The notes below the pieces were generated by a model. It did not search any database. It worked only from the letters and a program-made list of their open reading frames with translations, and was not told the DNA's origin. DNA of 64,000 nt from Macrostomum hystrix. Taxonomy: Eukaryota > Animalia > Platyhelminthes. Each line of letters begins with the position of its first letter. The first letter of the stretch is position 1. Shown piece after piece: positions 23,459 to 64,000 of this stretch. A program made the position numbers and the translations under genes. The stretch lies in assembly GCA_950097015.1 (NCBI GenBank), contig CATNEN010000038.1:20956001-21020000 (forward strand). The letters are read 5' to 3'.

Positions 23459-23659
23459 CTGGGGATCAATTAAGAAAATACGGGATTATTTTGCTGTTAT
23501 AGATATTTGACACCTAGCTAATTACTATTATAATCAGTATCTTCTCTCCACCGTATCATCTCTTCTCATCTCTTCTTTCGCTCAATATTCAATATGCCAA
23601 TCAATTCCGTGTTTCATCGCTCACTATCACATGTCACCTCATCCCTGTGTCTAATTTAT

Positions 23660-28989: not shown

Positions 28990-37713
<8,724 letters not shown>

Positions 37714-40280: not shown

Positions 40281-43200
40281 TCACAGCTCAATGCTGTGTT
40301 TATTATCCACGGGTAAACGGGGAAATTCATTTAATTTAAGTTTGAGCGAGTCGACTTTCAGTCGCATGGTATCGAAATATCCGCCGGTTACGCCGTCCTC
40401 AGCCAACTCCTCTTTAGCTAGATCATTGTAGCGAGCGGCCAATCGATCTATTGTTGTCTTAGCGTCAGGCTGGGACGCGAACTCGCGACCACAGACGTCA
40501 AATAAAATAGACATAGCCGACGTAACCTTTTCAACGGAGTCGTGATCTTGAAACTCAAGCAGCCTTGGAATCAGGGTGCACCAGCCAGTTTCAGCTATGG
40601 ATCTGGCAGCTGACACCTGCTGATATTGGCGCTGTCTCTCCACTGTGGCCGAAGATTTGGCGACTTCAGCGGCGGCTTCGGCAGCCTCCAGGGTCATGTC
40701 GGCTAGCAGGGTGACAATTCGCAGTAGGCGAGGTCGGTCCACATCCCGACTTTCAAAGGCGGAGCGCAGTGCCGCCAGGCCGCCTGATTTTAACAGAACT
40801 GTCTGCATTTGTGGTGCACAGGATGAGATTTTGAGTTTACTCCAAATTGAGAGGGTGAGATTTTGAGTTTACTGCAAACTGAGAGGGTGAGATTTTTAGT
40901 TTACTACAAACTGATAGGGTGAGATTTTGAGATTGCTCCAAACTGAGAGGGTGAGATTTTGAGTTTACTCCAAACTGAGAGGGTGAGATTTTGAGTTTAC
41001 TCCAAACTGAGAGGGTGAGATTTTTAGTTTACTACAAACTGATAGGGTGAGATTTTGAGTTTACTCCAAACTGAGAGGGTGAGATTTTGAGTTTACTCCA
41101 AACTGAGAGGGTGAGATTTTGAGTTTACTACAAACTGATAGGGTGAGATTTTGAGATTGCTCCAAACTGAGAGGGTGAGATTTTGAGTTTACTCCAAACT
41201 GAAAGGGTGAGATTTTAAGTTTTACTCCAAACTGAGAGGGTGAGATTTTGAGTTTACTACAAACTGATAGGGTGAGATTTAGAGATTGCTCCAAACTGAG
41301 AGGGTGAGATTTTGAGTTTACTCCAAACTGAGAGGGTGAGATTTTGAGTTTACTCCAAACTGAAAGGGTGAGATTTTGAGTTCACTGCAAACTGAAAGGG
41401 TGAGATTTTGAGTTCACTGCAAACTGATAGGGTGAGATTTAGAGATTGCTCCAAACTGAGAGGGTGAGATTTTGAGTTTACTCCAAACTGAAAGGGTGAG
41501 ATTTTGAGTTTACTGCAAACTGATAGGGTGAGATTTTGAGATTGCTCCAAACTGACAGGGTGAGATTTGGAGATTACTATACGATGAGAGAGTTTAACTT
41601 CAAGATAGTAGGATTAAAAACTAGTAAAGACTACAAACCTGAGCGAGTGGAAAGTTTCTACACAGGCCGGCCAAAGCCAGCACACTTGCTGATCGGGTCT
41701 GCTTGTCGGCGCCACTGCCAGCCATCATAATTCGCAGAAGCAGGGGCAGAAAGCCTGCTTTAATAGCAGCCACCTGAGCAACAAGAATTAAAATGCGAAT
41801 CAGTCACAAAATGTCAAGACATGCACACAGAGACAGTGAGACCGTCGTATAGGGTTTTAGGGTGTCAGAGAGTCAATGGGTGTCAAGGAGTTTTAGGGTG
41901 TCAGAGAGTCAATGGGTGTCAAGGAGTTTTAGGGTGTCAGAGAGTCAATGGGTGTCAAGGAGTTTTAGGGTGACAGAGAGTCAATGGGTGTCAAGGAGTT
42001 TTAGGGTGGCAGAGAGTCAATGGGTGTCAAGGAGTTTTAGGGTGACAGAGAGTCAATGGGTGTCAAGGAGTTTTAGGGTGTCAGAGAGTCAATGGGTGTC
42101 AAGGAGTTTTAGGGTGTCAGAGAGTCATAGGGTGACAGAGAGTCAATGGGTGTCAAGGAGTTTTAGGGTGTCAGAGAGTCAATGGGTGTCAAGGAGTTTT
42201 AGGGTGTCAGAGAGTCATAGGGTGACAGAGAGTCAATGGGTGTCAAGGAGTTTTAGGGTGACAGAGAGTCAATGGGTGTCAAGGAGTTTTAGGGTGTCAG
42301 AGAGTCAATGGGTGTCAAGGAGTTTTAGGGTGGCAGAGAGTCAATGGGTGTCAAGGAGTTTTAGGGTGACAGAGAGTCAATGGGTGTCAAGGAGTTTTAG
42401 GGTGTCAGGGAGTCATAGGGTGACAGAGAGTCAATGGGTGTCAAGGAGTTTTAGGGTGTCAGAGAGTCAATGGGTGTCAAGGAGTTTTAGGGTGACAGAG
42501 AGTCAATGGGTGTCAAGGAGTTTTAGGGTGACAGAGAGTCAATGGGTGTCAAGGAGTTTTAGGGTGTCAGGGAGTCATAGGGTGACAGAGAGTCAATGGG
42601 TGTCAAGGAGTTTTAGGGTGTCAGAGAGTCAATGGGTGTCAAGGAGTTTTAGGGTGTCAGAGAGTCAATGGGTGTCAAGGAGTTTTAGGGTGACAGAGAG
42701 TCAATGGGTGTCAAGGAGTTTTAGGGTGACAGAGAGTCAATGGGTGTCAAGGAGTTTTAGGGTGACAGAGAGTCAATGGGTGTCAAGGAGTTTTAGGGTG
42801 GCAGAGAGTCATAGGGTGTCAGGGAGTCATAGGGTGACAGAGAGTCAATGGGTGTCAAGGAGTTTTAGGGTGTCAGAGAGTCAATGGGTGTCAAGGAGTT
42901 TTAGGGTGTCAGAGAGTCAATGGGTGTCAAGGAGTTTTAGGGTGTCAGAGAGTCATAGGGTGACAGAGAGTCATTAAGTGTCAGAGAATCATAGGGTGTC
43001 AAAGACTTATAGGGTGTCAGAAACTCATAGGGTGTCAAAGACTTATAGGGTGTCAGAGACTCATAGGGTGTCAAAGATTTATAGGGTGTCAGAGACTCAT
43101 AGGGTGTCAAAGATTTATAGGGTGTCAGAGACTCATAGGGTGTCAAAGATTTATAGGGTGTCAGAGAGTCATAGGGTGTCAGAGAGTCATAGGGTGTCAG

Positions 43201-44756
43201 AGAGTCATAGGGTGACAGAGAGTCATAGGGTGACAGAGAGTCATAGGGTGTCAGAGAGTCATAGGGTGTCAGAGAGTCATAGGGTGTCAGAGAGTCATAG
43301 GGTGTCAGAGAGTCATAGGGTGTCAGAGAGTCATAGGGTGTCAGAGAGTCATAGGGTGACAGAGTCATAGGGTGTCAGAGAGTCATAGGGTGTCAGAGAG
43401 TCATAGGGTGTCAGAGAGTCATTGGGTGTCAGAGAGTCATAGGGTGACAGAGAGTCATAGGGTGTCAGAGAGTCATAGGGTGTCAGAGAGTCATAGGGTG
43501 TCTGCGTTATTAGGCGCAAGTGTATTTAAAGTCAGCGATTTGCCTGCACAGGCGCGTTGCCTTGACAACTGGCGGCTAGGACACGCAGCGCAGCCGTGGC
43601 AGCATTGCTAGCCTCAGCGGACTCATTGGCATAGGATCCATTCACCTGGCCCATCAGCAAGTCCAGGCCGCCAAGTTGAACAAAATTCTGGGCATTATCG
43701 ATCTGTCGTAGGTGGTACTCAAATTCCCCAAGAATTCGAAGACGATTAACCGGGTCAGCCGAAGATACAGCCCACTCAGCTAGAAGATCTTTAATTATTT
43801 CCAAGTCTGTCTTGATACCAGCGTTCAGCTTGGCAAAGTCGGCCTATAAAATTATTGATAAATTGAGATACAAAAATATAGAGAGATTTTTGGACCTTAT
43901 ATTTAGAAAGGAAGATCTGGATGACTGAATACTTAATCTGGGGATCTGAGAGGATAGAAATTTATCCTCAATATGACGATCTGAGATGACGGCGGCTCAT
44001 GTTGTAGGTCCTCCAATATGAGGATCTGAGATGATGATGGCTGATCATCACCAATATGAGGATCTGAGGTGATGATGGCTGCTCATTACCAGCATGAGGA
44101 TCTAAGGTGATGATGGCTGCTCATCACCAACATGAGGATCTAAGGTGATGATGGCTGCTCATCACCAACATGAGGATCTGGGATGATAGCAGGTAAATTA
44201 AGCAATGAAAAAGCACCTTTAACTCTTCATAGCTTCGAAACTGACTGGAGCTCGAATCGGCGCCATCACTACTGTCGCTAGCCAGGTTCTCGGCTTTGAT
44301 TTTTTTCAATGCCTCTTTCATTCTTCGACTACTCAGAGCCTCACGCAGCGTCTCGGATGTCAATCCTCCAATCTTGTCATCTTCATTTTCTCCTGCCGTC
44401 TCCTTGGCCGAGTTGGCTTCGTTGTTATTGGCAACCAAAGCAGGGAGATTAGCATCAGTCTGAGCCTGATCACCTGGCGGCATCAATCTGGCTTCAGTGT
44501 GGCCTGTCTGAATGTTCATGCGCACATGTAGTCCAGGAGGAATTCTCTGGCCAGGTAATACCAAACGCCACTCTTGCGTGGCGACAAAGTCGCTACTGGC
44601 AGCAGTAGATTTTGTATCTATGGCAACACCTTGACGCTTACAATAGACACTAATTGGCAATTGAATTAGGCACATTATGACTAACAGAGTTAGAGCTGCG
44701 AGCAATGTAGCCTGTTTTGCAAACTGACGATGTGAAGAAGTGAGAAGATTTGGCAT
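40281..44756 (-). CDS. SIL1: SIL1 (BiP nucleotide exchange factor), 4 exons (44756-44217, 43843-43544, 41773-41639, 40802-40281; ~498 aa)
   Basis: Signal peptide; FVATQEW...IPPGLHVRMNIQTGHTEARL; FRSYEELK|ADF; EYHLRQIDNAQNFVQLGGL; NAPVQ|VAAIKAG; RNFPLAQ|TVLLKSGGL; GWC; C-terminal SIEL (KDEL-like). Intron 2 is GC-AG. Confidence 0.93.
40824..41570. repeat. 32-bp minisatellite (GAGATTTTGAGTTTACTCCAAACTGAGAGGGT)n in SIL1 intron 3
   Basis: Tandem repeat. Confidence 0.93.
41850..43502. repeat. 18-bp/36-bp minisatellite (TAGGGTGTCAGAGAGTCA and dimeric variants) in SIL1 intron 2
   Basis: Tandem repeat with three sub-domains. Confidence 0.93.
43970..44190. repeat. Degenerate 38-bp minisatellite in SIL1 intron 1
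   Basis: Units of TGAGGATCTAAGGTGATGATGGCTGCTCATCACCAACA. Confidence 0.8.
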
Positions 44757-47569
44757 GGTTTTCTGTTCTGTAATTTGTTAGGAGCATTGTGTATACATGG
44801 ACAGAACCTTTGAAAGGCACCATCAATTTCTTAAAACATAATGTTTACTAAGTCTGTGTACTTATACAAAAAAGTCTGTACAAAAGTGTAGTCTTTAATT
44901 GCTAGAGACACTGGTCCCAGAATATATGTAGCTAGGAGTCACAATAACAACCTAGCTTGTCTTCCTATGCAAGTAAAGTCTGGAAAAAATTTGTAAATAA
45001 ACTTTTTGAGTAAGTCAAATGTCATTAATATGTGACAACATTAACATAGCTAAGTTGTTATATACTAACTTAAATGCTTAAAATACCAAATTGGATATCA
45101 AATAAAGTCTCTAAGCATTTTATATTAAAAAAATAGTTAATAGGCCTAACAATGTGTTTGATAGTTGATACATGTGTTTCACTGACACATATTGTTAACA
45201 TTTACAATAAACTCTTACCAAAAGGAATCTATAAATAACATAATAACATCAACCAGACTAGTCAATTTTTTTAATCCATGTCCATGCCACAGATCCATGA
45301 ATTTGAAAGTCAACTGATTTGCTTTCCTAATGACACATATTGCATGCATTATAAATTTAAGGCGTATTATTAAACAACAAATCATCAAACAACAAATTGA
45401 TTATTACCCTATAAAATAAAATAATTAAATTAAATGCACATCACACAACAACAACAGTTAGCTCTAGCCTAACTGAACATCAACAGATTTTATAGCAATA
45501 GGCCTACTGTATGATTTGTTTTTGACACTTAGGCCTATCCACCTATTGTTGTCATTGTATGAAAAACAATTTTGTTATTTTTATATTCACTCTATAAATA
45601 CCTGTTTTGCTATTTGTACAGCCATCATAAGTCCATACAAACAACGACTGCCTTTTATATATTTGCTCTAATAACAATTTGGTTAGGCCTAGGTGAAGGG
45701 GTGTGACTGAAATAAAATAAAGATCATGATTCCCGAGGCAAGTGAAATAATTTGATTTTGGCACAAATACTTAGACCTAGGCTATAGTCTATAGAAATTG
45801 GCCGCAGTGGCTATTTTTAGAGGGAATATATAGCATATTCAAATGGGGTCCCATTGAAATACAAATAGGACAAATAATGGTTAAAATTCGAGGCAATAGC
45901 TCGATATCCAATCATAGGCAAATTATGAAAACGTGAAAATATTAAAGCTAAAAATAGAGACAGGTATGCGAAAAAACAATCATACTACCTCTATTAAATC
46001 CCATCAAGCCTAGAAGATGCATAGGTATATAAACCAAATTATCTTACACGTCCAGAGATGGTAATTGTTGAATGTAGATTTTCTGGAAAAATGATGACGC
46101 CGAAATATAGAATGTAATTTTTACTTCTGTAGATAAAATGAAAATAAACAGCAAAAATGTATGCGTTACAGTTATCGCCTTTATGCTTATTTACATATAA
46201 TTTTATAGCAAATAAAAACATTCGTTAAGCTACTTTCCTTTTTTGCCTGCTCGATTAGAATCTCCCTTTCTTAGAAGTCGGTGCTTAACTAAATTTACAA
46301 AAAGCTGAGCTCCCGTAGTGCCTATGCTGTAGATGCATGCGTTTTTTATATTTTTTCCAGACTTTTATGCACAGAGGGTTTCCCAAGATTTGCAAAACTA
46401 TCTTAAATTTTTTCATGTATAGTTGACTAATCGAGACTACTTGAAATTATATTGGCAATATTGCTAGTTAGGTCGAAGTGCAGTCCGGAAAAATTGCCAA
46501 CGAGGAGCGAAGCGAGCGAAGCGAGCGTAGCTCCTCGTTGGCAATTTTTCCGGACAAACGAGACCGATATAAGATTGCCCGGAGACTCCCCCAACGTAAA
46601 ATCAACGTTTTAGAAAATAAAATTGATGCAGAATTAAAACCACTTGAGATGAAACCATGTGTGACCCCTCTATGGACGTAAAACATTTAGGGCTACAAGA
46701 TGAGTGACGTGAAAGTTCCATAGCAACGCGTCTTGGTTGCCATGGCAACAAAAAAGTGACTTTTTTTAGACCCATCGAAATCTTGAATCTTAAAAAATAA
46801 GGATTCACAATATGGAGTCAAAAATTGATTGAACCCAACTTTTGGCGAATTTTTAGACCTTCAAGACACTGATTGGTTATTTTCCGCTAAATGCTTACCT
46901 TGATAGGTAATTCTGTAAAAGTGTGTTTTTTAAGTGTCAAAAAATGCACATTTTTTTTAACTTTCAACTGACGCAGCTCAAAGGTCGCGCGTCAGCGCGA
47001 CCTTTGAGCTGCGTCATTCTAACGATGGCACCTGGGACTCTTACATGACGCACGACTTTAACCAAGATACTCACTTTAACTGTACATTCGCACCTGTTAA
47101 TTACATTCGAATATTCGACGGGTAGGTATTCGAACCGAAATAAAGGAAATTCAACCTTGTTGCGAGGTTCTAAAAAGTACATGAATGCGGTCATTCAGGT
47201 AAGATCTACATGTTTATAATACATTTTGAGCCGTTTCGTTCCACTGACTCTGAGCCATACACTGCTAAAGTCGATAAACGTGATTTAGGCTATTTTTATG
47301 CATTTTTCATGATACAAATGTACAAAAAATAAGCAACGACGACATGCTAGGAAAATCAGACTTTTTAGGCAAGGTGCACAACTAAATTTCGCACAATTTG
47401 TATATCTTGAAATTTCGTCTTAGTTTATTGAAGTCGCTGCCGGTACAGAAATGTACTTTAACGACGGTACGGGGGGCTTGCATATCGAACATACTTTTTA
47501 GCCTGTAACTTTTGAACGGATTACCGGAGCGCGACGCACTTGGTGTCATTGAACTACATTTTAGATGTA

Positions 47570-48628
47570 CTTTAATTTGAATGTATGTTCGCTGTCATTG
47601 CACGATGCGTTGTACACCTCAGGACAGGTCACGTGACTTGCTGGAAATGAAATAATGACTTTGTACCTATACTAAGGATAGGTGAAGCGTAAGAATGAGC
47701 CAAAATTTGTACTTATTAGAAACACCTAGATGACTACTGTCAGAAAAAATGATATTCACGTCTGTCAGTTGCAAAATTTTGTTATAATTGACTTTTAAAA
47801 TCGAAAAACGTGATTTTGTGCAAAAACAACCCATATGAGCACACATAGGGTGAAAAATTTATTGATTTTCGCTATGAGGTTCTTAGCTTCCAAGAGCACT
47901 ATTGTGCCCAGTAAACACGTACAGATGACTGCTATCTTCGTTAGTGTGCGAAAATTCGTATTTTTACGCTAATAACATTTACCGAATTACGAGGTTCCGG
48001 TGTTATGCGTTTTTTTGCTATATTTCACGCTGCCATTTATTAACGATGCTACGCCAGGCCTTCAGTGTGGTGTCAATAGTTAGCATTTAAAAAGTGCTTT
48101 AATTTGAGTGTATGTTCGCTGGCATTGCACGATGCGTTGTACACCTCAGGCCAGGTCACGTGACTTGCTGGAAATGAAATAATGACTTTGTACCTATACT
48201 AAGGATAGGTGAAGCATAAGAATGACCCATATTAGTACTTATTAGAAACATCTAGATGACTACTCTCAGAAAAAGTGACATTCACGTCTGTCAGTTGCAA
48301 AAAAAATTTTTAATTGACTCTCAAAATCGGAAAACGTGATTTTGTGCAAAAACAACCCATTTGAGCACTACATAGGGCGGAAAATATATTAATTTTCGCT
48401 ATGAGGTTCTTAGCTTCCAAGAGCACTATTGTGCCCAGTAAACACGTACAGATGACTGCCATCTTCGTTAGTGTGCGAAAATTCGTATTTTGACGCTATT
48501 AACATTTTACCGAATTACGAGGTTCCGGTACTATGCGTTTTTGCTATATTTCACGCTGCCATTTATTAACGATGCTATGCCAGGCCTTCAGTGTGGTGTC
48601 AATAAATAGCATTTAGCAAGTGCTTTAA
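47570..48628. repeat. Two ~527-bp tandem units inside the element left arm (also ~54460-55520 in copy 2)
   Basis: TGTATGTTCGCTG.CATTGCACGATG at 47582 and 48109. Confidence 0.85.
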
Positions 48629-50213
48629 GATGACATCATGCGCATTGCGTTGCGTAAAAGTGTGGGTCCACAGTTTCGTAACAAGTTAAAATGACCTGAT
48701 TTCGCAAAAATCTTTAAAAGAAAAAATACCAAATAGATAACTAAAAAGCCTTTTGAAACTGAATAAAAAATGCATATAAAAGTGCTATTTTGTAACGTAA
48801 AAAGTCTTGCGTCCTGCAAAAATCTTCTATGGTGACTTTTTGGAGCCGTGAAGTGTAAAAACGTGCGCATTTTTAAAGCTGCTGAACTTACTTTTTGAGG
48901 TATATTTTGAAAATAAGCATTTTATAAATTGTATAACAAAATTTAATTGAAGAAAGAAATAAGTTGCTTCAAAATCTGAATTAAAATAATTTTTAAATAA
49001 TCAAATTGTACATTTCAGTCGTTCTGTTTCATATGGTTTCTACACGAAAATAAAATTCAAATCGGCTATGTTAACATAGCATTCGAAATTTTTGTCGTAC
49101 GGCAAATTTGACATAAAAATTTCAAAGCAACTTAACCAAGCAATCACTATCTAAATCTGAATTTTTTTCAAGCCTTTAATCTGTAGCTATTATATTCGCT
49201 TTTTACTCTATATATTAGTATCCTACTACCTTATAAATACTTGTTTTACAATATATTGTGTTGTAGGGCTATTTACTAAAATCTCACAGCCGTCACCAGT
49301 TGTCGTAAAGCCCTTCTCTTTATTTTTATTCTTTATAAATTACTTATATTTATCCACTGCAAAAATGCTTATTTAAATGTCAACTTTCGTTATGTTTTAA
49401 AAATTTCCCTATTTATAGGGAAGTATAGGCCTAACACTTTAATATAAATTCAATTACTGTGGTAGCAAATCATAAGTGCCCGAGTGGTAAGACACTTTTA
49501 CTTTTAACTGTATAGAATTATTCTTTTAATACTTATTGATCACACCCAGTCTTTAAAGGCTCCAACTGATTGGAGGGTACCAGACAAACACAACATATTT
49601 ATTTCTATCCAAAACTGGCCTTTTGCTATCGTCTCGATAATAAACTGCCCTCCAATACGTTTTATGTATTCCCATTGTTATTTCCTCTTTATAACAATTT
49701 TTATTCAAAGAACACATGCATTCAGCAAATCTTATTCTTGAACTTGGGTTAAGCTCCCAAAAGTTAGTTTTTCTCCCTACAGCGCGCATATATTTATAGC
49801 AAAAATTGGGGGTGGGTATGCATATTTAAACAAAAATTAAAGTGTAGTTAAACAACGGTGAACAACGGTAAAAATATATATTAAATTGGAAATCAGAATG
49901 ATAAAATTCCTAGCCAAGTTTTCTAAGAAAGCCATAATAAGTGCTACTAATTATTAGTACTTACTCCAGTAGAAGAAATATCTGTCCTGACTCCTCACCA
50001 TTAATTAAACAAACCCGGTAGTTAGTCCTCGCCGGTTGTCTACGCCGGTTCGTCATATTGCATGACGGTTAGCAACATGCATATAAATAGCATTCGATTC
50101 GAGAAATATTCAAACAATCAACAGTTTCGGAATCGCCATCGAATGACCGCACAGCAAGTTCTGCTGGAGATAGGCCTAAGCAAAGCTAGGAAATGGTAGC
50201 GTAGTACGCGTAG

Positions 50214-50737
50214 CTAGAACATCGTAGACACTGGCATCAGCCATTCTTTTGCATCGCTGTAAGCGAGAAAACATCCAAAGCCGAGACCAACCAGTCGTAC
50301 TAAGTTTGTCTTTGGCTCTTGACTCGGTTGATCAGGAGACCAGAGCAGATTCAGATTGTTGCAAGTAAGTCCCATCAAATACACGGACTCTTTGTTCATC
50401 ACGACCAGTCGGCGACTGACCACTGCGATGTCGACAACATTTTCTACTGGAATCTGAGAGTGCTCTTGAACTTCCAGTGTCTCCGAAGACAGGCACAAAA
50501 GTTTTGAGTTGCTACCGAGAACGAATATTTTGCTGGCACAGCCCGTTACTCACAAAGGGTGCTCAAATTGGAGTAAGCACACAGTGTGGAGCACTGAGCC
50601 AGCCAAATCTGTCACCACTAGGTTTGAATCAAAAAACAACAAATAGAACTGCTGTTGTTTGTCGCTACAGTAACAAGACATCAGGTCAGATAGGTGTGAC
50701 ACTTCCCATTTGGCGATGTGGAGAGGCTCTCCGCTTG
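50214..50737 (-). pseudogene. Cargo 1: ~175-codon beta-strand-rich (possibly beta-propeller) reading frame with one in-frame TGA at 50550-50552
   Basis: GEPLHIAKWEVSHLSDLMSCYCSDKQQQFYLLFFDSNLVVTDLAGSVLHTVCLLQFEHPL*VTGCASKIFVLGSNSKLLCLSSETLEVQ...MPVSTMF*; the frame is open right up to the arm junction. Fold is inferred. Confidence 0.5.
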
Positions 50738-51113
50738 TAAATATATAAATATTTGTAGAAATTGATTTATTAGGCCTAGTCTAAATGTGTGCTAATTAGA
50801 CAATAAAAACAATTGAAGTATGTAGCTAAATATTTTGAAAAGCCTACTCCTAACATTTACCAAACTAGTGTTTAGCATTAAGAAAGTATATTTGCCTGTT
50901 TAAATTGCACTTTTTGTTGTTGTGATTTGGAATCACATTAACAACAATTATAACACAGCTGTTTTAATAACAAAATGAATAATAAATAATACACAAATGA
51001 AGAAAAAAAATTTAAACAATCCATTTTAGATTTAAAACTATAAATGATTATAATGTTAAAGTTAGAAGCATTATATTTCTATAGGGCCTATGCTTTGTTT
51101 TTATAATAATAAT

Positions 51114-51933
51114 TGTTGTACTCGCGACTTCCCAGAGGGACGCCCCTAGGAGGGTCAGAGTACGCGGGCCCGTGCTGGCCTGCGTCAGGGCGCGAGTGTC
51201 CGCACGGGACCCTAAGTCTGGGGCGTCAGGACGCACCCAAGTGGCCGGCACACGCGTCGGGACGCTGTGATGTTGATCACCCTTCAGTGGGGCGTCAGGG
51301 CGCACAAGCTGGCGTCTGAGTACAGCGGGCGTACAGTACAGGGTGACCCCTGGCTGGCAACCTGGTCTAGTCCCCCTCCTTAGTCGGCGTCAGGACACAC
51401 GGACGGTCCCCACTACAGCCCCCGAAATGAAGGAGACAAGGCAGCGACTTACTTCTGGTTCACTCGCACTCGTGCGTGTAGTCAACTTCGTGCAGCGGAC
51501 TTCTGATTGCGGCTGGCAGACTGGGTGGTCGATATTTATTAGTTATTATTTGTGCGTGGGGGACGGGTTATGGAAACAGTAGTCAGGCGTTGTAGAGCGT
51601 GAACACGCGCACGGGGGAGCCACCCGCCCCCGGCCGCGCCTTTATAGGACACGGCTCACCAAGGGCCGGGGCCCCCCCCCGCCCCACCCCCACCCACCAC
51701 CCCGGCCCAGCCACCCACCGGCCAATCACGGCGCAGCTGGGGGAGGGGCAGCCTGGGGCGAGGACCAAAAAGGGCGGCCCAGCCAACCAGCGCGCAGCCA
51801 ACACAATGGCGGCTAAGCGGCTTACACCACTGAGCCTTTAACGCCAAAACAACAATGCCAAAAACAACTGCGAGTGCACTTGTTGCGCGGGGGGGCGAGT
51901 GCACTTGAGCAGTGCAAGCGCACGTGCACAACA
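51114..51933 (-). mobile_element. Solo LTR (820 bp, TGTTGT...ACAACA, 4-bp TSD TAAT) inserted in the right arm of copy 1
   Basis: Absent from copy 2 (empty site ATAATAATAAT|ATAGAC at ~59036). GC-rich. Minus-strand TATAAA at ~51646-51641 followed by AATAAA at 51540-51535. Confidence 0.88.
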
Positions 51934-52230
51934 TAATATAGACAATATGATATTTAAGCCTAACTATCTTTGTTTGTTCCTTTTTAAACAGCTATAGCAG
52001 TGTAATATGACAATATAATATGGTGCCTAGAAAATGTAGTGTCCTAGTTGTGCCACTATCAGTAGGCCTAGGCCTATTTGATATCATTGGATGAGATGCC
52101 TAAGCAACAAGATAAGCAAAGGCACATTAGCAGATTTGTTATTGACAAAGTTAATAGGACTAGGTGTACAGGTGGATAGTAGCATGGCCAATATAGCATT
52201 GGGGCCTAGTCAGTAAAATTAGTAAAATTT

Positions 52231-52398
52231 TACACCACTTCACACCTCTTCAGATGCAATGCCAGGCCTACGGAGATCACGTTAGAAAACCTCTGGACTG
52301 ATCCTGTTAAGGCCGCCACCTTCCTGAGACTACCGACGAGCGAGGTAGAGTGTGAGCGTCCCGAACTAGCCTAAAGGAAGGCTACAACATACAACACA
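52231..52398 (+). mobile_element. 3'-terminal fragment of a non-LTR retrotransposon in the element right arm (second copy ~59330-59497)
   Basis: Translates to YTTSHLFRCNARPTEITLENLWTDPVKAATFLRL...*, resembling the C-terminal end of LINE ORF2 proteins, followed by an ACA-rich tail. Confidence 0.55.
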
Positions 52399-53358
52399 TT
52401 GCTAATCCGGGCTGCATCTCGCTGCTTTTATATATTTTTTGTTAATTAAAAGTAAAGTACTTGTCTTCGTTCCTCGAACCCAGTTTCTGTTTAAGGCAGT
52501 GTTTTCACAGTGTACTCTTTGAGCACTCTTAAGTACTCGTACTCTGGTACTCTTTAAGGGCGTAGCAATAGAGTACTCTGGTATTCATTTAAAGTGCGTA
52601 CTTTGAAGTGGGCGAGTACTTTTTAAAGTGCAACGCATTTCAGTCTGTCATCATCAATCCTAATTTTGTACTATATGAAAGTGTCAATAATCGCTGGTAC
52701 ATTAGTACATTCTCGCAACGTAAAATTAGTAGATTTATTATATGCATTTTAAAGATACGTTGCTTAGTAAATAACAGATATGTTATCAGTCCCATTAATT
52801 ATACCCTACGTACAGAAGTAACACAACATAATATATATGGTAACGTGGCTTGATGGCACTGCTAATGTGTGTGTCTGCCCATTCGTGTTGTTGCATGTAC
52901 AAAACAAGTGCTGTTTGGATAAATCTTTCCTTTAATTATGTTTTACGTTTTTTGACAGATGGGCATAGATAGATAGGTAGATAGATCTCATACTGTCTCT
53001 CTCACTCTCCGATTCTCCGCGCTCCCTCCCGCTGTTTTAATTTTGTTTATTTTGTTCCCTAATAAAAACATAAATTCACCCTCTCCCTCCATATGTGGGT
53101 CCCACATTCGGCTGTCAGTCAGTCAAGGAGATATTAGCGCTCATCAAGATTTTGATACAGGAGTCAATGATGCAGTAGTCTGCTCTATTAAAGTGCTTCA
53201 GTGAGTATCCTCAGTACAAAGGCCGCTAAGTTTTGGAATATTTATTAAGTCTTTTGTTCATTTTATTGGGTGACATGATCAGAAGTAAAAAATAATTTCG
53301 AAATATTGAGCAATTAATGCACTTCGACCTGCTAAGGTGGCACACCTTCAATCTAGTT

Positions 53359-56300
53359 AGGTCGAAGTGCAGTCCGGAAAAATTGCCAACGAGGAGCGAA
53401 GCGAGCGAAGCGAGCGTAGCTCCTCGTTGGCAATTTTTTCGGACAAACGAGACCGAGATAAGATGTGCTTGAGACTCCCCCAACGTAAAATCAACGTTTT
53501 AGAAACTAAAATTGATGCAGAATTAAAACCACTTGAGATGAAACCATGTGTGACCCCTTTATGGACGTAAAACATTTAGGGCTACAAGATGAGCGACGTG
53601 AAAGTTCCATAGCAACGCGTCTTGGTTGCCATGGCAACAAAAAAGTGACTTTTTTTAGACCCGTCGAAATCTTGAATCTCAAAAAATAAGGATTCACAAT
53701 ATGGAGTCAAAAATTGATTGAACCCAACTTTTGGCGAATTTTCAGACCTTCAAGACACTGATTGGTTATTTTCCGCTAAATGCTTACCTTGATAGGTAAT
53801 TCTGTAAAAGTGTGTTTTTTAAGTGTCAAAAAATGCGCATTTTTTTCAACTTTCAACTGACGCAGCTCAAAGGTCGCGCGTCAGCGCGACCTTTGAGCTG
53901 CGTCATTCTAACGATGGCACCTGGGACTCTTACATGACGCACGACTTTAACCAAGATACTCACTTTAACTGTACATTCGCACCTGTTAATTACATTCGAA
54001 TATTCGACGGGTAGGTATTCGAACCGAAATAAAGGAAATTCAACCTTGTTGCAAGACTCTAAAAAGTACATGAATGCGGTCATTTAGGTAAGATCTACAT
54101 GTTTATAATACATTTTGAGCCGTTTCGTTGCACTGACTTTGAGCCATACACTGCTAAAGTCGATAAACGTGATTTAGGCTATTTTTATGCATTTTTCATG
54201 ATACAAATGTACAAAAAATAAGAAACGACGACATGCTAGGAAAATCAGACTTTTTAGGCAAGGTGCACAACTAAATTGCGCACAATATGTATATCTTGAA
54301 ATTTCGTCTTAGTTTATTGAAGTCGCTGCCGGTACAGAAATGTACTTTAACGACGGTACGGGGGGCTTGCATATCGAGCATACTTTTTAGCCTGTAACTT
54401 TTGAACGGATTACCGGAGCGCGACGCGCTTGGTGTCATTGAACTACATTTTAGTTGTACTTTAATTTGAATGTATGTTCGCTGTCATTGCACGATGCGTT
54501 GTACACCTCAGGTCAGGTCACGTGACTTGCTGGAAATGAAATAATGACTTTGTACCTATACTAAGGATAGGTGAAGCGTAAGAATGAGCCAAAATTTGTA
54601 CTTATTAGAAACACCTAGATGACTACTGTCAGAAAAAAAGATATTCACGTCTGTCAGTTGCAAAAAAATTTTATAATTGACTCTCAAAATCGAAAAACGT
54701 GATTTTGTGCAAAAACAACCCATATGAGCACACATAGGGTGAAAAATTTATTGATTTTCGCTATGAGGTTCTTAGCTTCCAAGAGCACTATTGTGCCCAG
54801 TAAACACGTACAGATGACTGCTATCTTCGTTAGTGTGCGAAAATTCATATTTTGACGCTAATAACATTTTCCGAATTACGAGGTTCCGGTGTTATGCGCT
54901 TTTTTGCTATATTTCACGCTGCCATTTATTAACGATGCTACGCCAGGCCTTCAGTGTGGTGTCAATAATTAGCATTTAAAAAGTGCTTTAATTTGAGTGT
55001 ATGTTCGCTGGCATTGCACGATGCGTTGTACACCTCAGGCCAGGTCACGTGACTTGCTGGAAATGAAATAATGACTTTGTACCTATACTAAGGATAGGTG
55101 AAGCATAAGAATGACCCATATTAGTACTTATTAGAAACATCTAGATGACTACTCTCAGAAAATGGGACATTCACGTCTGTCAGTTGCAAAAAAATTTTAT
55201 AATTGACTCTCAAAATCGAAAAACGTGATTTTGTGCAAAAACAACCCATTTGAGCACTACATAGGGCGGAAAATATATTAATTTTCGCTATGAGGTTCTT
55301 AGCTTCCAAGAGCACTATTGTGCCCAGTAAACACGTACAGATGACTGCCATCTTCGTTAGTGTGCGAAAATTCGTATTTTGACGCTATTAACATTTTACC
55401 GAATTACGAGGTTCCGGTACTATGCGTTTTTTTGCTATATTTCACGCTGCCATTTATTAACGATGCTACGCCAGGCCTTCAGTGTGGTGTCAATAAATAG
55501 CATTTAGCAAGTGCTTTAAGATGACATCATGCGCATTGCGTTGCGTAAAAGTGTGGGTCCACAGTTTCGTAATAAGTTAAAAAGACCTGATTTCGCAAAA
55601 ATCTTTAAAAGAAAAAATACCAAATAGGTAACTAAAAAGCCTTCTGACACTGAATAAGAAATGCACATAAAAGTGCTATTTTGTAACTTAAAAAGTCTTG
55701 CGTCCTGCAAAAATCTTCTATGCTGACTTTTTGGAGCCGTGAAGTGAAAAAAACGTGCGCATTTTTAAAGCTGTTGAACTTACTTTTTGAGGTATATTTT
55801 GAAAATAAGCTTTTATAAATTGTATAACAAAATTTAATTAAAGAAAGAAATAAGTTGCTTCAAAAACTGAATTAAAGTAATTTTTAAATAATCTAATTGT
55901 ACATTTTAGTCGTTCTGTTTCATATGGTTTCTACAAGAAAATCAAATTCAAATCGGCTATGTTAACAGTAGCATTCGAAATTTTTGTCGTACGGCAAATT
56001 TGACATAAAAATTTCAAAGCAACTTAACTAAGCAATCACAATCTAAATCTGAATTTTTTTCAGGCCTTTAATCTGTAGCTATTATATTCGCTTTTTACTC
56101 TATATATTAGTATCCTATTGATTTGGATATTGATTGATTGATTTGATTTGTTTTGCATTTTTAAAGATACTAGGCCTATGTATAATTATGGACTTAGCTA
56201 AATAATTAGCCTAGGCCTACCTAATGTTGGGTAACTTGTATTGATTGGCAAAGCATTTCACTGCAAAGGCATATCTTGTGGTTTCAGATTTTCATCTTTA

Positions 56301-59300
56301 GAATTCCTAATCCAAATATACAGAATGTCCAAGATTTTCTATTATGAGTATTATTTATTGGACCTTAGTATATGATGTTAATTCATGTGGCTCACTTTGA
56401 TTTTTAAGTCTATTTAATAGAACTTTGTGATAAAAAATTAATGAATGGTAAATTATAATTAATTAGGCCTAGTCACACAGGACATCTGTAGCTATAAAAA
56501 CTTAGCATCTAAGTAGTTTACAATAGTTTAGCATTTTTAGGGTTTTATGTGTTGCAAAACTGTTTGCTTTCTACAGTATTTGGCTTAGGGCTGCATCCAT
56601 AATTGGAAACAATAAGCTTCTAGATATGTACATTAGAGACATATCTAGTATGTCTGTAATGTCTCTAGCTGTAACAAAAGAAAGAGCTTGTTACAGCTGG
56701 TGGTGTGTCTATGACGGATTTCACAATCTACTTCAAATTAAAAATAAGACTTCCCAACTTCAGCAATCCTGCCAAAACGAAGAAAATGAATGCAACTCAC
56801 AAAGATCTGTGATCTGCGATTTGATCTGCAAATTCCAAGATCGAACAACAGGTATCTACTTGAGTTAGAATTGAGTGATTTTAGAGACTTGTCAACATAT
56901 ATATTTGCTTCTTGGAGTCAATTGATACACAATAGAACACAAAGTTATTGTCAAAATAACGAATATAAAATACAAAAATAAATCAACAAGGAAAAAACGA
57001 GCACTATTTTTAATCCGCACAAGGCATGCTATCCACAAAGAATGACTATTATGAAATTTAAAAGTACACAAAAAACCTTAAAAAATAAATTTTCGTCCAA
57101 TTTACAACTGCAATAAGGCGGAAGGCCTTTTTGTTTACGAGTTGGAGTGGCAGCAAAGTTTGTGCTGCATTGCACGTATATTTATATACAATGCGAGAGC
57201 GAGATAGAGGGGTCTAGGGAGGTGTGAACTGGTGGCGTGACTTCATACCCCGGCTTAGCAAGCCGGCTGGCTGGGTGCACCAACCCCCACCTCAACTAGA
57301 CTGAGGTTGAGGGGTTTTGGGTGCGGCTGCACTGGCGCTGGTCACGTGTTGACTCTACGCCACAGCAAAGTATTATTCTTTTAGTTTCGATGACAAAAAG
57401 ACATTCTCGTAGTGGAAAGTTCCAAGGCAAGGATGAAATGCAAAGATACATTTCTACACATTGCCATTATTTCGAAGAAATAAGCATATTGGCAGGAGTA
57501 AGTCATGAAATAAAATCCTATTGTTGACACTTAGAAGCAATAACCAAAGCACAGGCACAAACTTTGTCACTTCTGAGATGCTAATTAACCCTGAACACAG
57601 ATTGACATTCAAATAAAAACTGTTGATTTCGTTATTTAATAACAATATTGGCAAATTAAAAGCTGAAAATTGAGCAAATGTTCTATCGATCAGGCACAAG
57701 GTTCAATTAAAATCATTTGATGCAGCCATATCAAATTGAACTAAGAAGACTAAAAAACTAAAAAGACAGGGGGAAGCTAAAAACATAAAATAAATCATAA
57801 AAACAAGATTGGACAGCACAAAGGACATAAGATCTAATTGATTTTAGCTGGGGAAGCGATACCAAGCAAGGGGCACCTTAATTTTTTGTAAAATGACACA
57901 CACAGTAGCAACCAACATTAATAGTGCGCTAGGTCCCACACAACTAGTTTCCAAGCAGTTCAATTAGACCCTGACTGGCCAGCGGCCATTGCTAGACCGG
58001 TCCACAATGTGCCTATCGTTACTGATGGTGACACGCAGGCTGCCAGTGTTGGCCTTGCCAAGGCGCACCAACTGACAGGGCAACTCCTCGTCGCTTTCCT
58101 CATCGACTCTGATAACAGACAGACAGACCCGCTGCCGCTGCTGCTTATAATCAGACTGATAATAGTTGGCGTTCTCATCTCGGCTCCGAGAAGACTGAAT
58201 AGTAGTGTAGCGCAGTTTATAGCGACTGTGAAGCTTCTCCTGCTGGAGTGCGCGCTGGCCAAAGCTCTGCGATCGAAAAGCGCCACCACCTCGACTAGCG
58301 CCTTGGTTGGCGCCACCTGTTCTCTGTCGCTGGATAAGCGAGCAGATGTGGCTTGTCTCCTCTGTTTCTCGACCAAATGCGACTAACTCGCCATTCACTA
58401 GGTGGATGTAGCCTACATTAGGCAAGCTGCGCATTAGTGAAGTCACATTGTCATGTCCAGCCAGATCGAGGGCGTGCCCGGCCAGGGCCCTGTACTGGGC
58501 CTGCAGCTCGCATAGTCGGACACCATTCTTAGTGCTGAGAAGTACAGCCCGAAGCAGGCTGTCTTGAGCAGTGGGGCTGGGAGTCGACATGAATAAACAG
58601 CTGAAAATCAATATATAAGGATTAGAGCAAAGAGGCTAGCTAAGGAAAATGCTGTATACTTCATAAATATATAAATATTTGTAGAAATTGATTTATTTGG
58701 CCTAGTCTAAGTGCTAATTAGACAATAAAAACAATTAAAGTATGCAGCTAAATATTTTGAAAAGCCTACTCCTAACATTTACCAAACTAGTGTTTAGCAT
58801 TAAGAAAGTATATTTGCCTGTTTAAATTGCACTTTTTGTTGTTGTGATTTGGAATCACATTAACAACAATTATAACACAGCTGTTTTTAATAACAAAATG
58901 AATAATAAATAATACACAAATGAAGAAAAAAAATTTAAACAATCCATTTTAGATTTAAGACTATAAATGATTATAATGTTAAAGTTAGAAGCATTATATT
59001 TCCATAGGGCCTATGCTTTGTTTTTATAATAATAATATAGACAATATGATATTTAAGCCTAACTATCTTTGTTTGTTCCTTTTTAAACAGCTATAGCAGT
59101 GTAATATGACAATATAATATGGTGCCTTGAAAATGTAGTGTCCTAGTTGTGCCACTATCAGTAGGCCTAGGCCTATTTGATATCATTGGATGAGATGCCT
59201 AAGCAACAAGATAAGCAAAGGCAAATTAGCAGTTTTGTTATTGACAAAGTTAATAGTACTAGGTGTACAGGTGGATAGTAGCATGGCCAATATAGCATTG

Positions 59301-60458
59301 GGGCCTAGTCAGTAAAATTAGTAAAATTTTACACCACTTCACACCTCTTCAGATGCAATGCCAGGCCTACGGAGATCACGTTAGAAAACCTCTGGACTGA
59401 TCCTGTTAAGGCCGCCACCTTCCTGAGACTACCGACGAGCGAGGTAGAGTGTGAGCGTCCCGAACTAGCCTAAAGGAAGGCTACAACATACAACACATTG
59501 CTAATCCGGGCTTCATCTCGCTGCTTTTATATATTTTTTGTTAATTAAAAGTAAAGTACTTGTCTTCGTTCCTCGAACCCAGTTTCTGTTTAAGGCAGTG
59601 TTTTCACAGTGTACTCTTTGAGCACTCTTAAGTACTCGTACTCTGGTACTCTTTAAGGGCGTAGCAATAGAGTACTCTGGTATTCATTTAAAGTGCGTAC
59701 TTTGAAGTGGGCGAGTACTTTTTAAAGTGCAACGCATTTCAGTCTGTCATCATCAATCCTAATTTTGTACTATATGAAAGTGTCAATAATCGCTGGTACA
59801 TTAGTACATTCTCGCAACGTAAAATTAGTAGATTTATTATATGCATTTTAAAGATACGTTGCTTAGGAAATAACAGATATGTTATCAGTCCCATTAATTA
59901 TACCCTACGTACTGAAGTAACACAACATAATATATGGTAACGTGGCTTGATGGCACTGCTAATGTGTGTGTCTGCCCATTCGTGTTGTTGCATGTACAAA
60001 ACAAGTGCTGTTTGGATAAATCTTTCCTTTAATTATTACGTTTACGTTTTTTGACAGATGGGCATAGATAGATCGGTAGATAGATCTCATACTGTCTCTC
60101 TCACTCTCCGATTCTCCGCGCTCCCTCCCGCTGTTTTAATTTTGTTTATTTTGTTCCCTAATAAAAACAAAAATTCACCCTCTCCCTCCATATGTGGGTC
60201 CCACATTCGGCTGTCAGTCAGTCAAGGAGATATTAGCGCTCATCAAGATTTTAATACAGGAGTCAATGATGCAGTAGTCTGCTCTATTAAAGTGCTTCAG
60301 TGAGTATCCTCAGTACAAAGGCCGCTAAGTTTTGGAATATTTACAATGGTTTTTTGTTCATTTTATTGGGTGACATGATCAGAAGTAAAAAATAATTTCG
60401 AAATATTGAGCAATTAATGCACTTCGACCTGCTAAGGTGGCACACCTTCAATCTAGTT
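53359..60458 (+). mobile_element. Non-autonomous Helentron-like element, copy 2 (head-to-tail with copy 1), carrying a LOTUS gene
   Basis: Same 5' subTIR (53359), left arm to 56117, right arm 58664-60458, with 3' subTIR (60418-60430), palindrome and CTAGTT. Confidence 0.75.
57964..58590 (-). CDS. Cargo 2: stand-alone extended LOTUS (OST-HTH) domain protein, TDRD7/TDRD5-like N-terminus, 208 aa, intronless
   Basis: LLRAVLLSTKNGVRLCELQAQYRALAG...SLMRSLPNV...GRETEETSHICSLIQRQR parallels the TDRD7 N-terminal LOTUS, including the C-terminal extension helix. Acceptor TTTTCAG lies 10 nt before the ATG. No Tudor domain. Confidence 0.8.
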   Translation of the reverse strand: MSTPSPTAQDSLLRAVLLSTKNGVRLCELQAQYRALAGHALDLAGHDNVTSLMRSLPNVGYIHLVNGELVAFGRETEETSHICSLIQRQRTGGANQGASRGGGAFRSQSFGQRALQQEKLHSRYKLRYTTIQSSRSRDENANYYQSDYKQQRQRVCLSVIRVDEESDEELPCQLVRLGKANTGSLRVTISNDRHIVDRSSNGRWPVRV

Positions 60459-62227
60459 TGTTGGTAGCTTATTGTTGTTGTTAACTTATCGCCGCTTATA
60501 AAATTAGGCTTATCGTCAATTTTTTGGTCAAGTCCGTTCCTTCTAGGCCTACTATATGATTTCAAAGCGGTCGACGAACTTTTCTCACGATTTTGCTACT
60601 GTTGACAAAGTATTTTAATTTTCTGCTTACCACATGGCAGCTTGTATCATTGTATGAATAAGTCTAAAACTCATTATAGGCCCCTATAAATATGCCGTGC
60701 CATTAATTTCAATTTTATCCACATGGTTCTGTTTTTTGAAATGAGGCCCTTTTGGGTTTGAACGTTTTGTTGAACCCTCGAGCCAATAGATTGACAAAGT
60801 TGCCAATGTGTTACGATATGACTGTGTTCTATACCATACTCTCAAATCTTACATGTACACTGAAAAAATTCGGTGTACATTTGCACTAGATTAGCTGGGG
60901 TATATGTATTTCCGGCGTACACAGTGCATACTGGGATACATTGGCATATTAGCGTATATTGGCATACATCGGTGTATGCTGCCATATGCCGGCTAGCAGT
61001 GCTGCGCAGGCAGAGGCAGACAAGCTGCAGGCACACATGTTGTGTGGGCATGCGGCTTGCATTGCATTGCACTTAGAAAGCGAAACATTCCATGAAATGA
61101 AATTGAAAAAATAGCATTTTAATTCAGATTGTTGAAAGAAGAGTAAAACAAAATTCCACAAAAGGATCATTGAATGGAAAACTTGATGGTGAATTTCTGT
61201 GTTGCATAAATTTTTTATTATTTTTTTGGCCCAGGGCCAATGTCGGCATGCTTTTTATCCCTACGTTTTAGGCACTAAAATTACTTTTTTCTTGTAAAAT
61301 GATGCACATTGTTTTTTTAAATTTTGCATACAGTTGCTATTTCTTTCTAGCATACATTTTATGGGCTACAGTTTGCTTCCACCGTACATTTCATTTTCTG
61401 GTGTACAAGACCAAGGCGTACAGTTAAGCACATTTGTGAGTATGGGTTCTACATTTTGACCTACACATTCATTAACTGACATTATGTTATCCTTTTTAAT
61501 TATTGTAGGCCTAATTTAACAACTTACTAAATCTTTTGTCACCGTTACATGTTTTCATTCAAATTGTATTGACTTAAAAAGTAAGAAGTCTATCAAAGAA
61601 AATCATACAAGTCAACCAGGAGAATTCTAGTCAGCACCAAACTCATCACACATATTATCACACATCATTGTTATTATTTTACACTATGCATTGATAGTGT
61701 ACACTATACACTATACTCTGAAGCAAAAGCCTTATGCTCAGAGAAGAATAGGTAGGGACTTGAAAGTAGACCTATTCATACAAGCTGCCGTGTGGATAAA
61801 ATTGAAATTATTGGCACGGGACCATGGGAATAAGCACTTCCTAATGATTATGCCATTTTGGATTTGTTCATGCCAAGCTTTTAAACTAAACTTTATTTCC
61901 ATTTGTCTGTTTCAGATGTTCTTCTGATGCACACTAAAATAAATGCCACCTGTAATGTACAGCAGACAGTGACTGTGTTGTATGACTTGACTGACTTGAC
62001 TTAGCTGCAGGGCGGTCCCATAGAGGGACACAGCAGGAAGACGATGCTGCCCATTCCGCTATTCCCTGAATGACCAAGGCTCCATCACGGACTAGGAGTT
62101 GGCATCACCCAGGGTGGTCCCTTGGAGTTGCTCTCTGCAGCCATGTTGCTCCCTGGAAGAGGGAGTGCAGCTCTGTGGGTGGCCCAAAGGTAGCGCGTGA
62201 ACTGATTAAGTGTTGTATGACACCTCT

Positions 62228-62508: not shown

Positions 62509-62864
62509 ACACCTCTGTGGACCTCTTTGTGGACCTGTAAGTTGCGCCTAGATTGGACTCGACATTAGCAAATCGAATATTGGGTGTGTTGGAAATGAAT
62601 GATAAAAGGTGTAGTATTGTAATAAGTCACATTAGTTGCTGTTATTTAAAGTAAAAAATAAGAAAAATGCCTTTAGATATTTAAATTATATATAGTGAAT
62701 AGCCAATACTACCACAGCTCTGACCAAAATCAAAAGCAGAGGCAAATTTCTTCCTTTCGAACTGGCAAATTTTGAGGTGGGTATTTACACCTGCATTCTA
62801 GTGTGAGTTGTCCTAGGGAGAGCAAAGGTTTGCTCAAATACTCATTTTTCATGCATTTATATTG

Positions 62865-63425
62865 GGCGATCTTTCGGTTCCCCTGCTCTAAATTATTTTA
62901 ACAATTTTTTCAAACTTTTCAGAGTCTGTTAGGTAAAGTTCAGGTAAGTAAAATATTAAGTTAATTAATTATTAGACTGGATAGTACTGGGTGATCCAGT
63001 ATAGGATGTTGCCAAAGTGGTGTTCAGGGAAAGCTCGACGCCACATGAACTCTTGCAGGTAGTTCTCCTCCTTCGAATTGAACGAAGCCTCTTGCACTGC
63101 TTGCAGGACCATGCAGCACCAGCCATCGATGGAGTCCTCGCCGAGACGTTGCTGAAGTGACATAGCAATGTCACAGGTCTAGCAATTCCTGCTATTGGCA
63201 AGCAGGTGGTGCCTCGCCATCCAACGCATCACCTCGTCAACATCGGGACCAATGCAACCAGTCCTCGATGATTGACATCAATGTCACACAGAACTATGCT
63301 GTTCAGGACTTCGGTGGCTGGAACAATGCTCTGTGGCGCAGGAGGTCGACCAGCCATACTAGCAGTAGCTGAAACGTTTGAAAAAATCGTTAAAATAATT
63401 TAGACTGGGAAACCGAAAGATCGCC
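62865..63425 (-). mobile_element. Internally deleted Merlin (IS1016/ISXO2-like) DNA transposon
   Basis: ~57-bp imperfect TIRs starting GGCGATCTTTCGGTT; 8-bp TSD TTATATTG/ATATATTG (1 mismatch). Remnant transposase with N-terminal Zn ribbon (LLANSRNC..C...WSCKQCKRLRSIR) joined to the C-terminal YLQEFMWRR...F.NIL..I.QYYP; DDE core missing; stops and frameshifts present. Confidence 0.85.
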
Positions 63426-64000
63426 ATATATTGTATTATGTATACATATATATTAGTCACATATATATCTAAATTTATCTATACTAAAGTCAATAAGCTC
63501 TTTTATTTTTTCTATAACTAGGTGATCCTGACTTTTAAACAATTATTGCTATTCTAAAGGATTACCAAGCATTTATGTTCAAACAGTTCAAACTTTTTAT
63601 ACATATAGGCAAAGTAATCAATAAAATATTATGAAAAATCTAATTGTTTCATTTTTTGTTCAAGTGTTGTTTCATTAGCTAATGTAATTTAGGCAAGCAG
63701 TTAAAAAATAAAACGGACAAGTTTAGCTGTCTAAAGCAGTAGTCAAGAGCTATGCTATTTGATGGAAAGCTTACCATGATAATTTAATTATGGTTTTATG
63801 TAGTACTGCTCACTGATTGCCTTATAATTATAGTTAGCCTATCTAATTCCCATAGGGCACAAAAATATTAGTCATTGTAAAGTTTGTTTGCAAAATCTCT
63901 TAAACAACTTATTTCAGTTTTTTTAAACAAAATATAAAAGCTGACTATAGCTAATGAATGGCTGCTGATAGCAATGTCAGATCTGATGCTCAGCAGCAGG

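Follow-up and report, generated by a model that had tools for sequence, protein, structure and literature searches.

Internal capture of host genes by a multi-copy HINE-like element of the flatworm Macrostomum hystrix: a probable history of serial insertion and one replacement

Rolling-circle transposons of the HINE/DINE-1 (PMC4067079) and HLE2 (PMC11417382) types have asymmetric subterminal inverted repeats (subTIRs) of 12–15 bp, a 3′ palindrome, TT flanks and internal tandem repeats, with no coding for mobility. Gene capture by HINE/Helentron elements is thinly documented. In the consulted part of PMC4067079, the captures described for Culex Helentrons are disabled fragments only; a Phytophthora proto-Helentron has one gene fragment, and mite HINEs have none. 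In the oyster element Cg_HINE (PMC7492417), related flanking modules surround unrelated centres, an arrangement ascribed there to insertion with loss of the old centre or to a filler-DNA model. Internal capture, by template switching at short microhomology, is described for Pack-TIRs and Drosophila Ssk-FB4 (PMC8277862), in which nearly a whole gene with its upstream DNA is taken up and amplified by transposition. Here we analyse an element in a 64,000-nucleotide stretch of M. hystrix (contig CATNEN010000038.1, positions 20,956,001 to 21,020,000; hereafter the window), which it occupies from 46470 to 60458 as two head-to-tail units of about 7 kb. It resembles the HINE, HLE2 and oyster elements in the traits listed, and Pack-TIRs in its probable history; unlike HINE and HLE2 elements, it is 7 kb long, contains a whole open host gene and has CTAGTT at both ends. 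Its centres are genes, in contrast to the satellite-like repeats of the oyster element, and the carrier differs from that of Pack-TIRs, a cut-and-paste terminal inverted repeat (TIR) element with target duplications. It is likely a non-autonomous rolling-circle transposon of the HINE/HLE2 type. The explanation we favour, at a probability of about 0.68, is that a multi-copy element with non-coding ends grew by a few separate internal insertions and one replacement, after which two or more forms that bear cargo became widespread.

The element was compared with the contigs of four of 20 listed public runs (X1, X3, X5 and X13) over two ranges, 53359–61400 and 44100–53420; of the loose ends at which contigs leave the element, 24 of 194 and 24 of 261 were covered. 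Across 2341 bp of flank X1 has 0 differences, and it could be the window's source rather than an independent sample. X5 is treated as RNA on its content, namely a spliced SIL1 exon and spliced-leader ends; these ends are identical to the 21–23 letters that precede the final G in the M. lignano spliced leader of PMC8629364. X13 represents a second organism, coded C, and the library kind of X3 is not on record. Copy estimates from depth are rough throughout, contig depth being no copy number. The ends and left parts of the element, together with one later insertion, are as follows:

46464..46469, plus strand: CTAGTT in the left flank; the identical 6 bp stand at the unit junction and the right end, and a contig of organism C also starts here
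46470..46482, plus strand: 5′ subTIR of unit 1, 13 bp
46483..46555: hairpin with 31-bp arms, adjoining the subTIR
46470..49259, plus strand: left core of unit 1, including 34 bp earlier counted as centre 1; loose end behind 49259 in X1 and X3
47541..48628, plus strand: internal tandem duplication of about 527 bp
51114..51933: solo-LTR-like (long terminal repeat) insertion, unit 1 only; 820 bp, 64% GC, TG..CA, 4-bp target duplication TAAT
53318..53358, plus strand: end of unit 1, with 3′ subTIR (53318–53330), palindrome (53334–53348) and CTAGTT (53353–53358)
53359..56117, plus strand: left core of unit 2; the junction at 56117 is likely a deletion
60381..60458, plus strand: terminal 78 bp, common with organism C, with subTIR (60418–60430), palindrome and CTAGTT

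The arms of the two units are 97.7–98.7% alike. The left arms (46470–49225 and 53359–56117) differ in 64 of 2763 aligned columns (2.3%; the alignment starts 11 bases into the flanks) and the right parts at 5/372 and 19/1434 positions (1.3%), and the centres have no local match to each other above noise. Near-identical arms around unrelated centres are what the first-pass annotation, made from the window's letters, had described, and motif and folding checks recovered its subTIRs, 5′ hairpin, 3′ palindrome, CTAGTT end and internal duplication. The 13-bp subTIRs are 100% complementary and were found at the four expected places only; the 5′ copy begins 2 nt after TT (0–4 nt from the end in HINE and HLE2), and the 3′ copy is internal, as in those elements, ending 26–28 nt before the end. 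The 3′ palindrome of 15 bp lies 8–10 nt from the end, within the 8–35 bp of HINE and HLE2. While the 31-bp 5′ hairpin stands out against 200 shuffles (z −9.85), for the terminal 82 nt taken together the fold is no better than that of shuffled sequence (z −1.25); an Rfam search of 46000–61000 gave 0 matches. By the criteria of PMC4067079, PMC3627910 and PMC11417382, the HINE/Helitron2-type end anatomy stands apart from the 5′ hairpin, which leaves out the subTIR. As 'Helentron' proper requires an endonuclease-bearing partner, the present, provisional assignment is one of end anatomy. The insertion reported as an LTR within the right arm of unit 1 is likewise there, a contig joint skipping 824 letters; we call it LTR-like for its TG..CA ends and duplication, no internal part having been identified.

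Contigs of single-copy depth reach across the outer junctions with 0 differences, but take in only 21 and 27 element letters, below the 31-letter rule for a bridged junction. In X1 the single-copy junction contigs have depths of 63 and 74, the core of centre 1 has 722 and that of centre 2 has 580, with 1045–1270 for the left arm and 933–1608 for the right; as rough multiples of single-copy depth these are 10–11x, 8–9x, 14–20x and 13–25x, respectively. A depth of 14–25 times single copy that drops at both ends, together with a second 3′ flank, indicates an interspersed multi-copy family with sharp ends. The second flank comes from an X5 contig that exits the element's 3′ end into another T-rich sequence (loose end behind 53358/60459). 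The two centre types suffice to fill the arms. The inner parts of the two units comprise:

49260..50737, minus strand: centre 1, 5′-truncated RING/coiled-coil (TRIM-like) gene piece with downstream DNA
50217..50738, minus strand: broken frame with 50% identity to residues 360–533 of M. lignano P0002; in-frame stop at 50550–50552
52228..52397, plus strand: LINE (long interspersed element) 3′ end of unit 1, by identity with 59327–59496; spliced-leader acceptor AG at 52252–52253
56118..56563: element-core part of 'centre 2'; 56217–56563 also occur in the element of organism C
56564..60380: 3817-bp block absent from the form of organism C (joint 56563 to 60381)
56635..59499: 2.86-kb block that ends at the LINE tail, with a 5-bp direct repeat at its bounds; skipped by a third form in X1
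57964..58590, minus strand: intact extended-LOTUS gene of 208 codons, counting the stop; its ATG is preceded at 11 nt by an acceptor-like TTTTCAG
58664..59326: inner 'right arm', AT-rich (23% GC in the first 376 bp, unit 1)
59327..59496, plus strand: 5′-truncated 3′ end of a non-LTR retrotransposon ORF2 (open reading frame 2), with stop and CAACA-rich tail; spliced-leader acceptor AG at 59351–59352

How the centres are joined to the arms differs between the two sides. At the right junction there is one alternative contig each in X1 and X3; over both ranges this contig is the known centre of the other unit. On the left, the arm continues in X1 and X3 for 34 bp into 'centre 1' and parts at 49259; the identical switch points ascribed earlier to both centres are automatic in a two-way comparison. 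In X3, 217 other letters stand before 56117, and the left junction of unit 2 is therefore likely a deletion. An X13 contig of depth 1607 joins 56563 to 60381, from which it follows that 56217–56563 is core, not cargo, and that the true right end is just 78 bp. A third form, found in X1 (depth 215, about 3x) and X3, joins 56634 to 59499. The 2.86-kb block which it skips stops within 3 bp of the LINE tail, and the LINE piece itself has no flanking repeat longer than 3 bp. If this block was inserted, 58663/58664 would be a capture junction for centre 1 and not necessarily one for centre 2.

The left arm in X13 is 98.0% identical to unit 2 (1228 bp, seven listed contigs) and 96.6% identical to unit 1 (1299 bp). 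The core of organism C (53359–55854, 56217–56563 and 60381–60458), at about 98% and high depth, is as near unit 2 as unit 1 is, and a recent horizontal transfer or introgression of the core is possible. The SIL1 exon at 44216–44768 appears in X13 in short pieces only, with 80% likeness; we regard this as a coverage hole and left it aside in considering horizontal transfer.

A coding frame on the minus strand had been noted in each centre. That of centre 2 is intact. Its product can be aligned from one end to the other with an M. lignano protein of 218 residues (cluster of 2 members); the best relatives of both centres are sequences labelled M. lignano by their source, at only 41–50% identity. 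With the spliced leader in X5, this points to a Macrostomum-type host that is probably a species other than M. lignano. The LOTUS match (PF12872) scores 23.8 bits, which equals the cut-off. Residues 10–90 align to Oskar chains (E 2e-6 to 4e-6), among them 5nt7_A, including their C-terminal extension, and the protein has both the LOTUS core and this extension, like the extended LOTUS of Oskar, TDRD5 and TDRD7 (PMC5458760). Unlike those proteins, it is a stand-alone 208-residue LOTUS protein, with no Tudor or OSK domain, and lies inside a repeat. According to PMC5458760, the extension is required for binding of the germline helicase Vasa, and the interface includes A162 and L228, the latter being Ile in TDRD5/7; a small residue is thus expected at 162 and Leu or Ile at 228. 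Ala15 and Ile82 of the cargo stand at the places of Oskar A162 and L228 (Oskar numbering inferred from chain length), and with both tested contact residues present the cargo is predicted to bind Vasa. No longer relative was found among 2311 candidates in a weak search. The single-sequence fold of the domain (pLDDT 48) was uninformative. LOTUS sequence is found among X5 contigs (57320–58044 and 58311–58677), whose source may be the parent locus.

Some observations on this centre stand apart. An atlas search gave LOTUS clusters at 0.85–0.87, a lead only. At 57740 an X3 contig departs from the element and has 255+ other letters, which may lead to a paralogue or to the parent locus of the LOTUS gene. 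The short hairpin-forming repeat at 57244–57341 (X1 bin depth 3576) is likely a separate small element.

Centre 1 is a truncated gene piece: its frame has no start, begins at about codon 360 of the family and contains an in-frame stop, and a transcript contig runs on upstream. Its M. lignano relative has 604 residues, with weak N-terminal RING matches (E 0.01–0.03) followed by a coiled-coil-like part, and 'TRIM-like' is our own provisional label for it. The X5 contig in question, of 1751 nt, matches 50089–50738 and then continues for 1106 nt of other sequence, with a 1-bp overlap at the junction; this continuation is as expected, because 360 codons are missing from the frame of centre 1. We dropped a candidate splice donor at 49966, and with it an intron within centre 1, as X5 and X3 contigs pass through unspliced, which makes an RNA route for centre 1 conceivable. 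No poly(A) was seen at 49260. Within centre 1 there is also a further repeat (49387–49697; X1 bin depth 2079), with several loose ends at 49427 and 49603, and the frame 49556–49825 gives a sub-threshold PAZ_2 match (E 0.07).

The 'right arm' is composite, since it contains the 3′ end of a LINE. The frame 59327–59470 has 48 matches, 37 of which end at most 25 residues from the C-terminus, and RVT_1 is present in 2 of the 12 scanned, the two longest; the LINE piece itself has no Pfam match, and an atlas search gave unrelated matches. From the boundaries of the 2.86-kb block, 58664..59326 is likely the LOTUS gene's own upstream DNA. The first-pass annotation had proposed this arm as the source of the cargo's promoter and outron. 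The outron part finds no support: the spliced-leader ends in X5 are at 44768 (the minus-strand SIL1-like gene, which serves as a control) and at the plus-strand acceptors of the two LINE pieces, so that the sole spliced leader seen in the right arm is directed away from the cargo. As for a promoter, the inner arm is more simply explained as LOTUS upstream DNA; a weak hint in its favour is that X3 depth, high over both centres, falls from 174 (58664–58920) to 24 (58891–59535). Such a fall near 58900 would suit starts in the inner right arm, although contigs give neither start, strand nor level. X5 is without cover at 58739–59007, a gap that was not used as evidence. A role of the solo LTR in driving cargo transcripts was considered and dropped; the long contig of X3 over the LTR has 67 differing letters and 17 gaps in 589.

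From the observed anatomy, forms and joints, we infer an order of steps, a repair mechanism and an enzyme. The starting point would be a core common with the second organism and made up of the left arm, some 0.5–1 kb more and the last 78 bp. About 0.95 kb would then have been inserted ahead of these 78 bp and, within that, the 2.86-kb block, which comprises the LOTUS gene and its upstream DNA as well as the LINE 3′ end, perhaps in a LINE-primed event. A single event of break repair with template switching may next have put the truncated TRIM-like piece in place of the LOTUS part. Both forms, with their ends intact, would have been copied by a partner enzyme not seen here, and the tandem pair would have formed when one copy inserted into another at its T-T end; Helitrons are known to occur as tandem copies and with their ends joined (PMC5148889). 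The earlier suggestion of internal rather than terminal read-through capture of host genes is supported, and the alternative offered along with it, a single replacement, fits.

Several points weigh against this history. A Rep/helicase partner was not found, and the end motif had 0 matches in metagenome contigs. A plain T-T target does not account for the CTAGTT of the left flank, and the subTIR lies outside the 5′ hairpin and is unpaired, whereas in Helitron2 (Bao and Jurka; PMC3627910) the hairpin takes in a portion of this repeat. If the shorter forms arose by deletion, as they could have, the steps would run in the opposite order, and for the 2.86-kb block a microhomology deletion is an alternative to insertion, the intervening letters being marked as not known. 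Contigs lose rare variants, and single-copy cargoes joined elsewhere could stay hidden; the full-length copies read are the two of the window, the other forms being assembled from contig ends. Finally, the summed depths of the centres (722+580) exceed that of the inner right arm (933), so that part of them comes from parents, other loci or GC bias.

The flanking CTAGTT raises the question of the mover. It occurs once at each of the three boundaries (46464–46469, 53353–53358 and 60453–60458), including a single copy at the unit junction; all ends have TT, and X5 shows a second flank that is T-rich, yet CTAG is repeated in the left flank, for which the chance, given TT, is about 0.003. The same capture history could have been carried by a Crypton-like tyrosine recombinase, or by a Replitron-like HUH enzyme that lacks a helicase, with CTAGTT as a fixed site, at which circles join and integrate into genomic CTAGTT. 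Terminal direct repeats of 6 bp are typical of Cryptons (PMC3212892), for which 4–6 bp are given, and of Replitrons (PMC10288648), and an X13 contig of depth 1097 starts exactly at CTAGTT. Contig starts in X13 at 46464 also suggest that other copies share the left-end CTAGTT. We nevertheless consider such a mover unlikely, since the element is HINE/HLE2-like in the spacing of its subTIRs, in its 3′ palindrome and TT flanks and in its internal tandem repeat, and no recombinase or Rep was seen. Moreover, 5′-TT/3′-CTAG ends are already known in a proto-Helentron (PMC4067079), the 13-bp inverted repeats at the junction are 28 bp apart, against 6–8 bp between the 11–13-bp repeats of recombinase core sites, and the Replitron hosts named in the consulted part of PMC10288648 are algae, plants and stramenopiles, with no animals among them. 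We hold it to be still less probable that the LOTUS cargo, amplified about eightfold and made in the germline, is retained as a Vasa-binding decoy or modifier of Vasa/piRNA silencing on a carrier that is site-specific at CTAG^TT and copies its own circle junction; if true, this would be a eukaryotic transposon with a host-derived counter-silencing gene. Three observations speak against a function for this cargo: of 6 differences listed for the LOTUS copy of the window, 4 change a residue, as drift would give, the form without LOTUS is equally abundant, and the abundant form of organism C lacks it too.

That a composite which no longer moves as a unit gained its copies through duplication, segmental or tandem, and through gene conversion among old copies would agree with the tandem pair and with neither partner enzyme nor circle having been shown; we judge it very unlikely, given that depth falls to the single-copy level right at both ends and that in another copy the CTAGTT is followed at once by a different 3′ flank. 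The cassette shuttle of the first-pass annotation, a fixed slot repeatedly loaded with different host genes that are expressed from the right arm, can draw on at least two internal captures in one 4-kb part of the element, on the common orientation of both cargoes and, as a weak hint, on the X3 depth over both centres. Yet the right junction shows just two centres in two runs and the left varies (49259, 56117), with further joints at 56563/60381 and 56634/59499; centre 1 is startless and contains a stop, the spliced leader points the opposite way, centre 2 belongs in part to the element core and the right arm is composite. What that annotation had itself named as speaking against its proposal, only these two centres or scattered breakpoints, is largely what the X1, X3 and X13 contigs contain, and we give the shuttle hardly any credence. 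An assembly error behind the tandem arrangement or the left junction of unit 2 appears extremely improbable. Neither the junction between the units nor this left junction is bridged by a contig among those listed, and X1 is perhaps the window's own source; however, the units differ by 1–2%, in the LTR and in their centres, and both centre/right-arm junctions occur in X1 and X3.

In the history of serial internal capture, the stages (core; core with 0.95 kb; with the LOTUS block; with the replaced centre) seem to coexist, which would make the route of internal capture readable in one genome. The intact LOTUS cargo in several copies, these coexisting stages and the fixed 6-bp end repeat go beyond the routine, and since a gene of predicted Vasa-binding type lies on a multi-copy element, a role in counter-silencing can be tested directly, in a flatworm genus for which laboratory tools exist. 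Searches outside which most subscription papers and Repbase fell found, by title and opening of the abstract among the papers listed, no earlier account of a Macrostomum Helitron of this kind, and no literature joining Helitron/Helentron with LOTUS; PMC10468722 mentions neither Helitron nor Crypton.

The element sits 1.7 kb upstream of a gene for a SIL1-like nucleotide exchange factor (40284–44777, minus strand; spliced-leader site at 44768), a label taken from its frames (Fes1, E 0.06). Other host genes of the window are a Rhodanese-domain gene (9135–10655), Cdc25-like by our reading, and genes for RRM (19421–20023), SRP19 (22976–23485) and LIX1 (35458–35889) proteins. Between 9135 and 37791, many long minisatellites lie between and within host genes, the longest measuring 5.5 kb with a 22-bp unit (29771–35260). 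Just to the right of the element, 60622–60890 is a repeat of very high depth (X1 bin 23918), and further on a 64-bp inverted repeat pair (62859–62922 and 63369–63431) surrounds a short Cys-rich frame, possibly a small TIR element.

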